Source: Planctomycetota bacterium (GTDB lineage: Bacteria > Planctomycetota > UBA8742 > UBA2392). From it: 64,000 nt of DNA. How positions within the stretch are numbered: position 1 is the stretch's first letter; every line of letters begins with the position of its first letter. Shown here piece by piece: positions 3,072 to 63,328 of the stretch. The stretch is taken from positions 5,853 through 69,852 of the forward strand of contig JAJVIO010000034.1 in the NCBI GenBank assembly GCA_022071975.1. Reading direction: 5' to 3'. The notes under the pieces were generated by a model that saw nothing but the letters and a program-made list of their open reading frames with translations, had not been told where the DNA came from and searched no databases. The translations under genes and the position numbers were made by a program.

Positions 3072-3307
3072 GGACGCGCCGTGGGGCAGACATCCTGTCT
3101 GCCCTGTAGGGACACGCGGCAGTGTGTCCCCCGCCGTGGGGCAGGCTGCCAGCCTGCCTGTAGTTCGTGATGTGGACCATTGGCGGCAACACGTAGGGAC
3201 ACGCGGCAGCGTGTCCCAGGCCGTGGGGCAGGCTGCCAGCCTGCCTGTAGTTCGTGATGTGGACCGGTGGCGGCAACACGTAGGGACACGCTGCCGCGTG
3301 TCCCTAC
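3068..3307. repeat. REP array: GTAG + GGGACAC..GTGTCCC hairpins in an 87-bp tandem unit (starts 3106, 3193, 3280), last copy inverted
   Basis: gtagggacacgcggcag(t/c)gtgtccc occurs at 3106 and 3193. Each is followed by a second hairpin ggcaggctgccagcctgcc. The copy at 3280-3307 has the reverse-complemented loop (gctgccgc). A degenerate copy sits at 3068-3105. Confidence 0.85.
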
Positions 3308-3376: not shown

Positions 3377-4189
3377 TCACCCCTCGGCTTTCTTAGTCCG
3401 GCCTCGCGGACGAATCGTTGATTCCAGCCCCAGCTTGCGCGCGGCGTTCTTGCGCCAGGGATCGTCACTAAACGGCGAGCCCCGGTTCACGCACTCGCGC
3501 AGCTTCGCTAGCTGCTCAGCCTCTTCTTCACGGTTCACAAAACGCAACCAAGGCTGCGGCCGCGGCGTAGGCCCCTCCACCAGCCAGTGGGCGAGCGGAA
3601 AAGGGTCAGGCTCCCCGGGGTCTGGCTCCTTTTCCGGCCGGCGCAGTTTGCCGGACGGAAAAGGTGCCTGACCCCCTCCCGAGCCCGAATACAGCCAGTC
3701 CTGGGCCTTGGCGACCATGCCCGCGCGCACGGGGTTGCGCTCGACGTAGCGCAGCACTGACAAAAGGTGCCCGCCGGGCTCGATGGGGAAGCTGCGGTAG
3801 CGCCCCTGCCAGACATGCACCGAGCCCTTGTAGTGCTTGTGATAGCGCCGCACATGGCAGGTGGCAGCCCACTGCATGAAGGCCTGCAGGTCGCCGTCGC
3901 GCCGGGGCCACAGCTCCAAATGGAAGTGGTTGGTCATCAAAACCCAACCCCGCAGGTGGATATCGAACCGCTTGCAGGCCTGCCCTGAGTTTGTCGAAGA
4001 GCCAGGGAAAGGATGCGCTCAAAGGCCGCGAAGCCTGCCAGCCGGCCTGTCCACTGAAGCTTTTGCGAAGGTGGAAGCCGAGGCGAAGGCTGGGTCTTCG
4101 GGCTTGTGGAATACGTTAGCCCGGCCGTTACCCCGGTTGATAACATGGTAACAGATGCCACCGCGGGCGGAGCGAAGAGGTCGAGCCAT
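3377..4189 (-). pseudogene. REP-associated tyrosine transposase (RAYT, Y1/IS200-like), disrupted
   Basis: From ATG 4189: MARPLRSARGGICYHVINRGNGRANVFHKPED. Downstream: LMTNHFHLELWP...WQGRYRSFPIE...RYVERNPVRAGMV...LGLESTIRPRGR. There is an in-frame TGA at 4021-4019, and a homolog-like AAFERIL segment sits in another frame, so the gene has at least two frame disruptions. Confidence 0.8.
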
Positions 4190-5693: not shown

Positions 5694-5735
5694 TTTCCCT
5701 ATGCCCTATGCCCAATGCCCTAAGCCCTGCCCCAG
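5694..5735. repeat. heptamer array (core GCCC): tttccct atgccct atgccca atgccct aagccct gccccag
   Basis: Read directly. It is intergenic, between the stop of 5763-6311 and the start of 5281-5652. Confidence 0.8.
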
Positions 5736-14750: not shown

Positions 14751-15827
14751 ATGAGCATTGAATGGCTGGAAGCGGAATCCGCGATTGACGAACGCGTGGC
14801 CCTGCAGGCCCAGCGCGAAAAGCTGGAGGCCGCCTACGACGCGAACCCCGGCGACGCCGAGGCCGCGCTGCGGCTGGTCAACGTGCTGGACCAGCTCGGC
14901 GTGCCCGCGCAGGAAATGGCCGCGCGCATCGAGCGCGCCTTTGAGGCCAACCCCAACGACCCGGCGCTGATGGCGTGGCTCGGCCAGCTGGCCTACCGCA
15001 TGGGCCAGCTCAAGCTCGCCATGCTGACCCTGAAACACGCGATCAGCCTGGACCCCGATGACACCCTGGCCAACTTCACACTCGGCCAGTGCATGCTGTA
15101 TGCGGGCACGTTCGAGGACGCCCTGCGCTACGCCAAGCGCGCCTGGGATACCGGCCAGGCCGCTTACTACCGCAAGGAAATCAGCCGCCTGTACTGCATC
15201 GCGCTGGTGCGCCTGCGCCGCTTCGACGAGGCCTACGAGTTCCAGAAAGAACAGCTGGCTGAACGGCCGGACGACAGCCAGACCGTGATCGACACCGCAG
15301 ACCTGCTGGGTGAAATGGGCCGCGACGACGAAGCCCGCAAGCTGCTGCTGAATGCGCACAACAAGAAACCGGCCGACACCGACCTGCTGTTCCGCCTGGC
15401 GGTCGCGCACTTCGAAAGCAACGACTTCGCCGGCGCGATCGAGTGGGCCGACAAGGTGCTGGCCGCCGACGCCCAGCACCTGGAGGGCTGGAACCTGCGC
15501 GCCCAGGCCAAGTTCAAGCTGGGGCTGTTCGAAAGTGCCTTGGCGGACCACGGCATGATCCTGGAGCTCAGCAAGAGCATGCCGCTGGACCGCAGCTTCG
15601 TGGCAAGCTGCTACGAGGGCATGGGGCGCAAGGCCGACGCCATCGCCGCGCTGAAACAAGGGCTGATCGAGGCCAAGGACTGGCCCGACCGTAAGCGCGC
15701 CTACCAGCAGCATCTGGAACGGCTGCAGATCGTCACGCCCGACCAGCAGAAGAAGAAACACAACCTTGGGCCGAACGACCCCTGCTGGTGCGGCAGCGGC
15801 AAGAAGCTGAAGAAGTGCCATGGGTAG
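14751..15827 (+). CDS. TPR-repeat protein with C-terminal SEC-C metal-binding motif
   Basis: Multiple TPR-like helices. C-terminus PNDPCWCGSGKKLKKCHG. Confidence 0.85.
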   Translation: MSIEWLEAESAIDERVALQAQREKLEAAYDANPGDAEAALRLVNVLDQLGVPAQEMAARIERAFEANPNDPALMAWLGQLAYRMGQLKLAMLTLKHAISLDPDDTLANFTLGQCMLYAGTFEDALRYAKRAWDTGQAAYYRKEISRLYCIALVRLRRFDEAYEFQKEQLAERPDDSQTVIDTADLLGEMGRDDEARKLLLNAHNKKPADTDLLFRLAVAHFESNDFAGAIEWADKVLAADAQHLEGWNLRAQAKFKLGLFESALADHGMILELSKSMPLDRSFVASCYEGMGRKADAIAALKQGLIEAKDWPDRKRAYQQHLERLQIVTPDQQKKKHNLGPNDPCWCGSGKKLKKCHG

Positions 15828-15925
15828 CTGTTGGCTGTTGGCTAACAGCTAACGGCTAACAGCCAATAGCTAACGGCCAGCGGCTGATAGCTAACAGCCA
15901 ACGGCTAACGGCCGATAGCGCCACG
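15828..15925. repeat. heptamer array, 13-14 units of C-N5-G (ctgttgg ctgttgg ctaacag ctaacgg ctaacag ccaatag ...)
   Basis: Read directly. Starts at the first base after the TAG stop. Confidence 0.85.
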
Positions 15926-39199: not shown

Positions 39200-39241
39200 C
39201 CTGTAAACTGAAACCTGTAACCTGTAACCTGAAACCTGTAG
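39200..39241. repeat. heptamer array (core CCTG): cctgtaa actgaaa cctgtaa cctgtaa cctgaaa cctgtag
   Basis: Read directly. Ends 6 nt before the yvcK ATG. Confidence 0.85.
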
Positions 39242-50360: not shown

Positions 50361-50465
50361 CAACAGCAAATGAACAATAACCAATTACCAATTTTCAATG
50401 AGCTGCCCCGGTCGCGGGCGCCAATTGGAAATTGGTTATTGGTTATTGGTAATTCGCTGTTCGAA
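50361..50465. repeat. heptamer arrays in dyad symmetry (CAATNNN x4-6 ... ATTGGNN x4) around a GC core
   Basis: Left arm: caacagc aaatgaa caataac caattac caatttt caatgag. Core: ctgccccggtcgcgggcgcc. Right arm: attggaa attggtt attggtt attggta attcgct gttcgaa. Confidence 0.85.
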
Positions 50466-60609: not shown

Positions 60610-60629
60610 CTGACAGCAACAAACACACG

Positions 60630-60661
60630 GCCCGCCGCATAGACGGCGGGCTTTTGTGTTT
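60630..60661. terminator. rho-independent terminator after rpmB
   Basis: gcccgccg-cataga-cggcgggc followed by ttttgtgttt. Confidence 0.75.
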
Positions 60662-60677: not shown

Positions 60678-61400
60678 TCAACTCGCGGAATAGCGCCGCT
60701 CGTCGATTACCTCGCGCGGATTGCTGCGCAGGTCAAGCTCATGCAGCACCTCGTCACGCAGCTCCTTTGAAGTCTTGTCCACCCATTCATTCCCGACCTT
60801 CTTGCGCACGGGCAGTCGCAGCACGAAGTCGCCCCTGATGCGGTTGTAGCGGCGCCGAATCTCCTGCAGGAAGTGCAGCTTCTCGGTGCTCTGGGGCGCG
60901 TCGCCGTCGGCGAACATGTACTTCTGGCCCTCCTGTTTCACCCAGCGCTGCCCCATGCCCAGGCTGCGCTTGCGGGTACGCGCCAGGCCGAAACGCGGCG
61001 CGATGTCCAGGATCACCAGCAGGTCGGGCTTGGGGTGCCAGCCCTCATGGCGCTTCAGGATCTCGGTCTCCGGCACGCCCATGGCGCCCTGGTACACCAG
61101 GGTGCTGTACATGCTGCGATCCTGGATCACGTCTTTGCCCTGCTTCAGCGCGGGCTTCACGATCGTGTCGATGTTCATGCGCCGGTCGGTCACGAACATG
61201 CCCAGCCACTCATGCGGCGTCGCCTTGAAACCGCGTGTTGACAGGCGCTCGAGGATCAGCTTGCCGCTGGGCAGGTCCGTGGGCTCGTGGGTCAACAGCA
61301 CGTCTCGGCCGCGCGCGACCAGCGCATCCGCCACCAGTTTCACCAGCGTGGATTTCCCGGTGCCGTCAATGCCTTCAATGATGATGAAACGACCGCTCAT
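60678..61400 (-). CDS. tmk: dTMP kinase (with C-terminal extension)
   Basis: FIIIEGIDGTGKST P-loop, ...DRSMYST..., 240 aa. Confidence 0.85.
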   Translation of the reverse strand: MSGRFIIIEGIDGTGKSTLVKLVADALVARGRDVLLTHEPTDLPSGKLILERLSTRGFKATPHEWLGMFVTDRRMNIDTIVKPALKQGKDVIQDRSMYSTLVYQGAMGVPETEILKRHEGWHPKPDLLVILDIAPRFGLARTRKRSLGMGQRWVKQEGQKYMFADGDAPQSTEKLHFLQEIRRRYNRIRGDFVLRLPVRKKVGNEWVDKTSKELRDEVLHELDLRSNPREVIDERRYSAS

Positions 61401-61486
61401 GAGAGGTCAGAGGTTAGAGGCCGGAAGTCAGGGACGCCATAGCCGAAAGCACCCTGACCTCTGATCCCTGATAGCTGACCTCTGAA
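61401..61486. repeat. entire 86-nt spacer = 12 heptamers in dyad symmetry (NAGAGGN ... ACCTCTG)
   Basis: gagaggt cagaggt tagaggc cggaagt cagggac gccatag ccgaaag caccctg acctctg atccctg atagctg acctctg. Confidence 0.85.
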
Positions 61487-63328
61487 TCACCAGCTTCCGC
61501 CGAAGCGCTTCTTGCGCTTGCGCGGCAGGCGCGATGGACCGCCGGGCTGCGCGCCCGGCTGTGCTCCGGGCTGCGGGGGAGGTCCTGCGGGCGCCGGCGG
61601 CTGCGTGCCGGGCATGCCGTAACCCTTGAGGCGCGGGGCGCGCTTCTGGTTCACCAGCACCTGGCTGTCGCGCTTGACCTTCAACCCGCCGGCCGGCGCC
61701 GGCCCGTCGAAGAAACCGGGCAGCTTGCCCGTCCGCATCAGGTGCTCGATGTCCGACACCAGCTGGCTGGCGCTCGCCGGCCGATCCTCGGGGCGCTTGG
61801 CCATCATCGAGTAGACAAGCGTGCTGGTGGATTCCTGCAGGTCCGGTCGGAAGTTCTTGGGGTGCGGCGGCGGTTCGTGGATGTGTCGGTACATCACGAC
61901 TTCCGGCGGGCCCTCGAAGGGCACGCGCGCCGTAAGGCAGAAGTACAGCGTGACGCCCAGGCTGTAGATGTCGCTGCGGGTGTCGATGTCCTGGCGGCCC
62001 ATGGCCTGCTCAGGTGAGATGTAGTTGGGCGTGCCCACCGCCATGCCCTTGGCCGAGCCCGAATCTTCGGCGGCGCGCATCTTGGCCAGCCCGAGGTCGA
62101 GCAGTTTCACCTGGCGGTCGCGGGTGATCATGATGTTGTCAGGCTTTACGTCGCGGTGAACCAGGCTGAGTTTTTCCGCGTGCTCGAGCGCTTTCGCGAC
62201 CTGCAGGATGGCGTCCAGCGCCTGGCGCTCGTCCATGGCGCCGCGCTCTTTCACCAGCTGCTGCAGGGTCTTGCCCTCGACGTACTCCATCGCGAAGTAG
62301 CACAGGCCGTCCACTTCGCCGGCGTCGATGCCGGTGATTACGTTGGGGTGGTTCAGGCGGGCGCTGGCGCGAGCTTCCTGCAGGAATCGCTGCTTGATGG
62401 TGACGTTGGCCGCCAGCTCCGGCTGCAGCACCTTGATCGCCACGAAGCGGTCCATGCGCACCTGCTTGGCCTTGTACACCGTGCCCATGGCGCCCTGGCC
62501 CAGCTTTTCCGCCAGCTGGTAGCCCGGGATCTTGTCCTGCAGCTGGTACATCTGCTGGTAGCTCTTGATCTTTTCGACGCCCGGTTTGTCCAGGTAGCCG
62601 CGCTGCACGAGGATCTGGCCCAGCAGCGGCACGCGCTGCCCCTTGGCCAGCAGGGCCCGCTGCACGTTCACGCACTCCTGGATCTGTGCCGCAGTCACGA
62701 GTTTCAGGTTCACGGCCGCCTGGCCGAAGCTGATGCGCGCCTGGCCGGCCACGGTCTCAGGGGGTTTCTCGACTTCCACCGGGTCCATGTCCTGGGTTTC
62801 GGCCAGGCTGGGGTCCTGCGCGGCGCGGTACTGGACTTCCTGGGGCGGGCGCGACACCGGGGCCTGCGGTACTTCCGTTTGTTCGCCAACCGGTTGCTGG
62901 CTGCTGGCCGCACTGCGTGGATGCTGCTGACTGGACGCGCTGCTGCGTTGTGCCGGCTGGCTTGACGCTGCACTGCGCTGCTGCTGCGCGAGCTGCTGTG
63001 CGCGACTGAGCGGCTGCGGGGGCGGAGTACCCGGCTGGCGCGGTGGCACCGGTGAAACGCGAGCCGGAGGCTGCGTCGGTTTCTGGTTGCTCGGCGGCGG
63101 GCCCAGGGAAACCGTGGGAATCGAGGGCTGCGGCGGCTCCTCACCCTTCTGTTTGTCGGTTCCGGGCATCCGTCTGCTGTCTTCCTTGGGTTCCACACGG
63201 CGCGTCACGTGGGAGTCCGGCCGTTTGACCGGGTAAACACGCGGCGGACCCGAGCCGCCGCCTCCCTCCGAAGACGTGGACCGATTGACGTGCCTTGGCC
63301 CGTTGCTAGCCATCTCTTGTCCAAACAC
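61487..63328 (-). CDS. Ser/Thr protein kinase with long Pro/Gln/Ser-rich N-terminus and Pro-rich basic tail
   Basis: GQGAMGTVYKA, VAIKVL, HRDVKPDNIM, DLGLA and GTPNYISPEQ motifs. Confidence 0.9.
   Translation of the reverse strand: MFGQEMASNGPRHVNRSTSSEGGGGSGPPRVYPVKRPDSHVTRRVEPKEDSRRMPGTDKQKGEEPPQPSIPTVSLGPPPSNQKPTQPPARVSPVPPRQPGTPPPQPLSRAQQLAQQQRSAASSQPAQRSSASSQQHPRSAASSQQPVGEQTEVPQAPVSRPPQEVQYRAAQDPSLAETQDMDPVEVEKPPETVAGQARISFGQAAVNLKLVTAAQIQECVNVQRALLAKGQRVPLLGQILVQRGYLDKPGVEKIKSYQQMYQLQDKIPGYQLAEKLGQGAMGTVYKAKQVRMDRFVAIKVLQPELAANVTIKQRFLQEARASARLNHPNVITGIDAGEVDGLCYFAMEYVEGKTLQQLVKERGAMDERQALDAILQVAKALEHAEKLSLVHRDVKPDNIMITRDRQVKLLDLGLAKMRAAEDSGSAKGMAVGTPNYISPEQAMGRQDIDTRSDIYSLGVTLYFCLTARVPFEGPPEVVMYRHIHEPPPHPKNFRPDLQESTSTLVYSMMAKRPEDRPASASQLVSDIEHLMRTGKLPGFFDGPAPAGGLKVKRDSQVLVNQKRAPRLKGYGMPGTQPPAPAGPPPQPGAQPGAQPGGPSRLPRKRKKRFGGSW

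Follow-up and report, generated by a model that had tools for sequence, protein, structure and literature searches.

To our knowledge, the long simple repeat with the greatest over-representation in many bacteria has, since 2007, been the heptanucleotide, and we know of no accepted cause for this. Likewise, we know of no function for the open reading frame (ORF) of rRNA intervening sequences (IVS), which has been recognized since 1993. In Coxiella burnetii, the IVS of the 23S rRNA is located in helix 45 and contains an S23p ORF, a 28-bp stem that is cut by RNase III, and variable tandem heptamers (PMC4990558), and it is for the rRNA IVS only that excision by RNase III has been demonstrated. 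Heptamers are also described away from rRNA genes. In Xanthomonas, 70-75 convergent inverted pairs of GGGAATC arrays are found per genome, intergenic and near the upstream gene (PMC4692102), and in Geobacter metallireducens, sets of five MTYCTGA units are hairpin-like (PMC2700814). The arrays of both genera, along with the cyanobacterial STRR, are variable between close relatives and their function is not known, and the Xanthomonas and Geobacter papers name no gene family. In the Beggiatoaceae, TAACTGA arrays abut start codons at the Shine-Dalgarno (SD) position in organisms with few canonical SD sites, so that a role in translation was suggested; these arrays repeat a single unit in direct orientation, apart from one inverted set (PMC4679880). 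Short repeats are coupled with a gene in two other systems, namely REPIN-RAYT, where short hairpin repeats far outnumber a single-copy protein gene flanked by the same repeats with about one protein lineage per repeat family, and MITEs, where gene-less copies and a gene-bearing parent have common ends.

Here we analyzed a spacer between a protein kinase gene and a thymidylate kinase (tmk)-like gene in the window, which denotes the whole stretch of 64,000 nt under analysis (C2:5853-69852 of the genome labelled G000). The element that fills the spacer resembles the 23S rRNA IVS of C. burnetii and Leptospira (PMC4990558) in that terminal inverted repeats form a long stem, tandem heptamers of variable copy number are located in the stem region, the loop of full-length relatives contains a PF05635/S23p four-helix-bundle ORF, and the insertion is in the sense direction in transcribed DNA. 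Unlike the rRNA IVS, the spacer has no ORF and is located between two protein genes instead of in an rRNA helix, and the 23S genes of this clade are without IVS (in 8 genomes they measure about 2,960 nt and no large insert is present). The spacer and its relatives share 7-nt units, a mostly intergenic location and proximity to the 3' end of the upstream gene with the heptamers of Xanthomonas, Geobacter and the cyanobacterial STRR; in contrast with those, dozens of unit families instead of one are present in a single genome, and the arrays match four-helix-bundle cassettes in unit and polarity. Heptamer arrays abut start codons as in the Beggiatoaceae, but as dyads of many units. Like REPIN-RAYT, short hairpins here far outnumber the gene that is flanked by the same repeats, at about one protein lineage per repeat family, whereas the flanked gene encodes a four-helix bundle with no known catalytic activity and not a Y1 transposase, the arms have heptamer periodicity, and the loops lack relationship to one another. 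Gene-less and gene-bearing copies have common ends as in MITEs, except that there is no transposase, no target duplication, and no internal sequence common to the copies. Considering the spacer as a whole, we find it likely that it represents an IVS-like, heptamer-armed hairpin element in complete but gene-less form, which is probably carried as a tolerated passenger.

Overall structure of the kinase-tmk spacer

On the minus strand, the window encodes a Ser/Thr protein kinase of 613 aa (61487..63328; Pfam Pkinase, E 4e-51) and, downstream of it, a thymidylate-kinase-like protein of 240 aa (60678..61400; Pfam Thymidylate_kin, E 6e-31, residues 8-147), the orthologues of which share 78-91% identity in eight Planctomycetota MAGs. 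The spacer between the two genes spans 61401-61486, from the TGA stop codon of the kinase (61489-61487) to the ATG of the tmk-like gene (61400-61398), and the first-pass annotation was exact in its coordinates, in its length of 86 nt and in the positions of both codons. A two-way terminator-like hairpin at 60629..60652, detected in the terminator scan, is located 3' of tmk and of a convergent rpmB-like gene, and is likely the end of the kinase-tmk transcript.

The period-7 autocorrelation of the spacer was 0.53, compared with 0.25 ± 0.05 in dinucleotide-preserving shuffles (z 5.7), and its periodicity was matched by none of 20,000 shuffles, whether period 7 or all periods from 2 to 15 were considered. 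The heptamer periodicity proposed for the spacer is thus significant against such controls. The periodicity is concentrated in the arms, which exhibited autocorrelations of 0.57 and 0.66. While the arithmetic of the proposed parse into 12 heptamers plus 2 leftover nucleotides is right, only about five units per side repeat, and the middle units gccatag ccgaaag constitute a loop.

The 5' arm on the mRNA (61452..61486, minus strand) begins immediately past the kinase stop codon and consists of about five units of the CAGAGGU family (UUCAGAGG UCAGCUA UCAGGGA UCAGAGG UCAGGG), whose unit and polarity are those of the 5' arm of a gene-bearing cassette, L071. The centre of the element (61435..61451, minus strand) is not repeat-like and appears in the predicted folds as a loop region with four weak apical pairs around a 9-nt loop at 61439-61447; the 3' portion of this region (CUAUGGCGUC) is common only to the orthologous copy in the relative L001. 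The 3' arm (61401..61434, minus strand) consists of units of the ACCUCUG family (CCCUGAC UUCCGGC CUCUAAC CUCUGAC CUCUC), and its last base adjoins the tmk AUG. Placed from stop to start between co-directional genes, the arms fill the whole 86-nt gap. TRF reported 4.3 heptamer copies at 61402-61431, as in repeats of the long SSR/STRR type (at least three tandem 7-nt units, intergenic). The segments 61402-61433 and 61452-61483 are complementary at 72%, so that two inverted 7-nt arrays form one hairpin, and the dyad symmetry that had been noticed between the left and right units holds, also in the RNA fold (z about -4). In Rfam, no family matched the spacer at its gathering score, and the sole match, Ocean-VII at 14.5 bits versus a gathering score of 53.5, is at chance level.

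Predicted fold of the spacer RNA

The minus-strand RNA of the spacer region was predicted to fold with -48.9 kcal/mol (z -3.9), a stability reached by none of 200 shuffles, and the 86 nt folded alone gave -41.7 kcal/mol (z -4.1). The predicted stem is imperfect with about 31 pairs, or 35 when the four apical pairs are included. In this fold, the kinase UGA (61489-61487) is paired with the UCA at 61402-61400, the final base of which is the A of the tmk AUG. The mRNA strand carries AGAGGU units in the 5' arm, 50-85 nt 5' of the AUG, and an anti-SD-like CCUCU adjoining the tmk AUG is paired with SD-like AGAGG. The earlier statement that SD-like units are present only on the wrong strand for tmk was therefore inaccurate; because the element is a dyad and reads alike both ways, such units are found on both strands.

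A stable hairpin directly 3' of a stop codon might be an intrinsic terminator of the kinase gene that is followed by a promoter of tmk. However, the stem is followed by AUGAGCGG and lacks the U-run that accompanies the GC-rich stem of an intrinsic terminator, our scan of the spacer detected neither a terminator-like nor a sigma-70-like promoter site, and since the stem ends at the AUG, there is no room for a tmk promoter. We consider this arrangement extremely improbable. Considering that terminator-like and promoter-like sites are both missing from the spacer and that a promoter-like site is present 5' of the kinase gene, kinase and tmk are probably co-transcribed. As such, of the long hairpin in the co-transcript that the first-pass annotation envisaged, the hairpin is supported by folding, and the co-transcript is what we infer from these sites. 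A G-quadruplex, a reading taken from PMC4692102, was ruled out on the basis that the CAGAGGT unit has no G-runs.

The kinase-tmk junction in related genomes

The kinase gene is kept 5' of tmk in seven of the eight Planctomycetota MAGs, and all seven syntenic relatives have a heptamer dyad at the junction, beginning 1-5 nt after the stop codon and ending 0-5 nt before the start codon. The structure of the spacer is thus kept among relatives. The units (5' arm / 3' arm) are CAGAGGT / ACCTCTG in the window and L001, which differ in unit number, GATTCAG / CTGAATC in L002, GGATTTT / AAAATCC in L004, L005 and L006, and CAGTTGT / ACAACCG in L007, and L003 has a degenerate unit mix. For all four of these junction units, the clade has a gene-bearing counterpart at another place. 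In L008, synteny is lost and only a trace of the 3' arm is left. No other heptamer arrays were found in the 8.7-kb kinase-tmk loci of the relatives. The fold z at the junction ranged from -3 to -5.8 in six copies and was 0.2 in L003 and -1.4 in L006, indicating that copies at this site can decay.

In L004 and L006 (3950-4012 in both), no start codon is present past the 3' arm of the kinase-tmk hairpin, and an in-frame ATG 5' of the arm would add 13-17 N-terminal codons to tmk (MSSIQNPKSEIRNRGGRFI... and MPAIQYQQPEVQNRPGRFI...).

The presence of a dyad that fills the junction in all seven syntenic relatives, together with a stem base that pairs the stop with the start codon and with the pairing of the anti-SD-like CCUCU before the AUG to SD-like AGAGG, would suit a dedicated cis-regulatory RNA of the kinase-tmk operon, in which the hairpin is under selection because it couples or throttles the translation of tmk or directs processing. 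Such a regulator is difficult to reconcile with a site at which four unrelated units are found and the unit was replaced among relatives, such that the SD-likeness is not conserved, or with the decaying copies in L003 and L006.

Heptamer arrays and gene-less hairpins across the genome

We ran TRF on the whole assembly of G000 (4.24 Mb in 91 contigs, 64.9% GC, 88.7% complete). With thresholds of TRF score ≥40 and ≥3.5 copies, period 7 was dominant among the tandem repeats, with 315 arrays compared with 0 at period 5 and 1 at period 8. After merging, 383 heptamer arrays were obtained, 78% of which are mostly intergenic, and the genome is about 83% coding by rough gene calls. Inverted partners within 250 nt were found for 218 arrays, versus separate direct partners for only 14, and 143 inverted pairs, or dyad elements, were defined, whose length and loop have medians of 87 nt and 22 nt, respectively. 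With its 86 nt, the spacer is typical of these 143 dyads; rather than the local regulatory oddity that the first-pass annotation described, it is one of a family of hairpins that has four-helix-bundle-bearing full-length members.

The canonical units number 66, with a few dominant families, AATTACC, AGGAGGC/AGGCGGC, AAAATCC, ACCTCTG (that of the spacer), AAACCTG, AACCTAC and AATGACC. Each unit family has one fixed polarity (AATTACC 60:2, GGATTTT 18:0, CAGAGGT 15:0, CAGGTTT 14:0), and dispersed copies of one family have a common unit order and common outer ends, for example GAACAGCRAATTACCAATAACC...GGTTATTGGTAATTYGCTGTTC. Among gene-less copies, the loops are mutually unrelated and have a genome-like GC content (0.63) regardless of the GC content of the arms (0.31 to 0.75), and no similarity of loops, either among gene-less copies or to the ORF or interiors of the cassettes, was found above shuffled controls. 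Only the arms are copied, and not the loops. Given unrelated loops of genome-like GC content, neither simple mini-element copying nor in-place ORF deletion is supported.

Within the window, a gene-less hairpin of the AATTACC family with the conserved outer termini of that family is located at 50373..50454 (C2 56225-56306). By TRF, a heptamer array of GCTGTTG / GCTAACA extends from the stop codon of a SEC-C-motif gene (15826..15920), a direct array of CCTGTAA / CCTGAAA ends 6 nt 5' of an ATG (39200..39241), and a short direct array of CCCTATG is present at 5697..5728. No heptamer arrays were found near the rRNA operon of the genome and only two beside tRNAs; a tRNA-Sec gene is followed after 4 nt by a CAGAGGT-family hairpin (G000 C48:28-156).

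Contigs of G000 end in heptamer arrays with 19-25 copies of GGCAGGA (C15:1-174, C9:1-132). Since contigs terminate in them, arrays break the assembly, and the counts of arrays and cassettes given here are lower bounds. At C63:6457-6494, C81:3635-3712 and C26:61488-61526, the units equal the eukaryotic telomere repeat (AGGGTTT = TTTAGGG) or are near to it (AGGGGTT, AGGGCTT), and such telomere-like arrays often adjoin a second array of a different family.

Among the 143 dyads, 98 are located in co-directional gaps, 22 in convergent gaps and 18 in divergent gaps, and the 5' arm begins at most 15 nt past the upstream stop codon in 53 of the 98 co-directional gaps. In co-directional gaps, the antisense strand was more stable than the mRNA strand in 50 of 72 cases and the opposite was seen in 22 (p 0.002), and the hairpins have 235 G-U pairs on the sense strand compared with 346 on the antisense strand. 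This trend is opposite to that expected from selection for a stable mRNA-strand hairpin, which was rejected. The asymmetry could be due to selection that weakens mRNA stems or to mutation bias. The sense strand of the hairpin-bearing co-directional gaps is A+C-rich (A.233, C.291, G.262, T.214), so that a mismatch that is A·C in the mRNA is G·U on the antisense strand. Both the elements in 22 convergent and 18 divergent gaps and a sense strand that folds worse than the antisense strand throughout the genome argue further against the spacer being a regulator dedicated to the kinase-tmk operon, which we regard as unlikely.

Elements that are short, extragenic and palindromic, and that far outnumber any protein gene, are reminiscent of REP/REPIN elements moved by a RAYT (Y1 transposase), and 28 PF01797 matches are present in the genome. 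However, only one heptamer array was found within 1 kb of the 28 Y1_Tnp matches, where about 6 would be expected by density, the heptamer elements have no GTAG/CGTC head, and it is instead a classical GTAG-type REP array that adjoins the Y1_Tnp match of the window itself. A RAYT/REP link was rejected for the heptamer arrays, as they are not associated with the 28 Y1_Tnp matches and are not arranged as Y1-flanking repeats, and we give hardly any credence to their being REPINs. The REP-like array in the window (3106-3304 and 3734-3982) has 2.3 tandem copies of an 87-nt unit with GTAG-headed REP-like palindromes (GTAGGGACACGCGGCAGCGTGTCCCAC), about 430 nt from the Y1_Tnp (RAYT-like) match.

Four-helix-bundle cassettes

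The full-length element consists of two inverted 7-nt arrays around a PF05635/TIGR02436 four-helix-bundle (4HB) gene, hereafter a cassette. The 4HB protein belongs to the family of the 23S rRNA IVS ORF and is a distant relative of DGR Avd. Only small 4HB genes were found to be enclosed by such arms (TIGR02436 E 2e-35, with weak similarity to DGR Avd), and no larger elements with a transposase bounded by heptamer arms were found in the genome. In G000, ten PF05635 matches are over the cut-off, and all ten are located between complementary heptamer arrays, each with a different unit. A gene was considered armed when both flanks had at least 17/28 period-7 matches and at least 22/35 complementarity. 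Based on this definition, 27 of 32 PF05635 genes from the same GTDB family were armed in a first batch and 31 of 40 in a second, giving 58 of 72 in both. Among the other predicted genes of G000, 5 of 2,863 were armed (Fisher p 1.6e-13), one of which is pheT, located between two cassettes. Armed 4HB genes were also found in one genome each from the same order and the same class, but not in the most distant genome. In a genome of the same class, the 4HB gene at L041 (G018:C29) has inverted hexamer arms (CCCTTG / CAAGGG). Protein identity correlates with arm-unit similarity (Spearman -0.44, Mantel p 2e-4), a signal that comes partly from orthologous copies.

Cassettes are co-oriented with their neighbours and located inside operons, as in gcvT-gcvH-gcvPA-[cassette]-gcvPB and in the case of pheT, which is flanked on both sides. 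The cassettes that flank pheT (Phe-tRNA synthetase beta subunit, G000 C30:6175-9332) have related but distinct arms (CAATGAC, AATTACC), and their proteins are likewise related but distinct. At the gcvPA-gcvPB junction, the cassette extends exactly from stop to start in G000, G002, G003 and G008, of which G008 has arms that differ from the others, the site is empty in two congeners (TAGCCATG and TAATG), and two relatives have a short plain gap. The 4HB cassettes thus occupy exact stop/start junctions of co-directional genes, and the site is filled or empty among congeners. Because no transposase, target-site duplication or moving intermediate was seen for the cassettes or the hairpins, the term mobile rests on filled versus empty sites in one clade.

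Relationship between gene-less hairpins and cassettes

Gene-less hairpins outnumber cassettes in G000 by about 14 to 1. When the 5'-arm units of the 143 gene-less dyads were compared with the cassettes, 81 were identical to the 5'-arm unit of a cassette in G000, where there are ten. Compared with 60 cassettes from the clade, 121 of the 143 were identical and 141 were within one mismatch, and identity to cassette units in the wrong polarity was seen in only 2. The quality of the arms exhibited no real difference between families with and without a resident cassette.

In the case of the spacer, no CAGAGGT-armed cassette was found in the G000 assembly, which is 88.7% complete. The CAGAGGT-armed cassette L071 is present in a congener (G007:C243) with the arms AGAGGTCAGAGGCCAGAGGTCGGAGGTCAGGG ... 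CCCCTGACCTCTGACCTCCGGCCTCTAACCTCTAA. The 3' arm of the spacer and that of L071 are identical at 22 of 23 bases (CTGACTTCCGGCCTCTAACCTCT) and have the same polarity, and the identity includes the variant units CCTCCGG and CCTCTAA. The spacer therefore has its unit, polarity and unit order in common with a PF05635-bearing copy. Considering that its loop is 17 nt and contains no PF05635 gene, we class the spacer among the gene-less derivatives and do not call it a cassette.

We also compared the density of heptamer arrays with the 4HB survey in six genomes, which are phylogenetically non-independent and from each of which 270-400 kb was sampled. The densities per 100 kb were 9.1 arrays in G000 with 10 PF05635 hits, 8.8 in G003 with 14 hits, 5.2 in G015 with 6 hits, 0.25 in G020 with one weak, unarmed hit, and 0 in both G013 and G016, neither of which had a hit.

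These comparisons bear on whether the arrays are plain SSRs that were made in place by slippage, with palindromes made by template switching and no relation to any gene family. According to Mrazek (2007; cited in both PMC4679880 and PMC4692102), in many bacteria no long SSR is more common than the heptamer, for which slippage was put forward as the cause, and the difference in unit number between the window and L001 would be in line with slippage. On the other hand, the polarity is fixed in each family, dispersed copies have a common unit order and common outer termini, the spacer equals a cassette arm at 22 of 23 bases, the repertoire and polarity of the units match the 4HB cassettes, and related genomes without 4HB genes are without arrays. 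The plain SSR reading was already disfavoured, and we regard it as quite improbable.

Discussion

The copy of a heptamer-armed element in the kinase-tmk spacer is probably a tolerated passenger, selfish or neutral, rather than a dedicated regulator of tmk. In the kinase-tmk co-transcript, the insert would fold into an imperfect stem, the base of which would pair the kinase UGA with bases of the tmk AUG. Such a fold would close the insert off and leave the stop codon next to the start codon, as if the junction had no insert, and by bringing them together it would make the insert tolerable in a tight junction. From this folding model, we infer that kinase and tmk may be translationally coupled via the hairpin. 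RNase III, the gene of which (rnc) is present in the genome, may cut the spacer stem and separate the two cistrons, which seems plausible by analogy with the stems of rRNA IVS.

A broader reading, which we put forward tentatively as a possibility, is that heptamer arrays have PF05635 proteins as their cognate partners, one lineage of the protein for each unit family, and that gene-less hairpins are non-autonomous members. The elements would then form a REPIN-RAYT-like system without a known transposase, which colonises cistron junctions and rRNA helices. No paper in the literature that we searched links heptamer hairpins throughout a genome to PF05635.

Two puzzles meet in G000, namely the excess of heptamer repeats and the ORF of the rRNA IVS, for which we know of no function. 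If PF05635 proteins and heptamer arrays are indeed partners, this would explain why heptanucleotide repeats are over-represented in the genomes of bacteria. For annotation, spacers of this kind are better read as inserts than as locus-specific regulators. For operon biology, the hairpins provide more than 100 natural inserts at cistron junctions, which are usable for tests of coupling and of RNase III processing.
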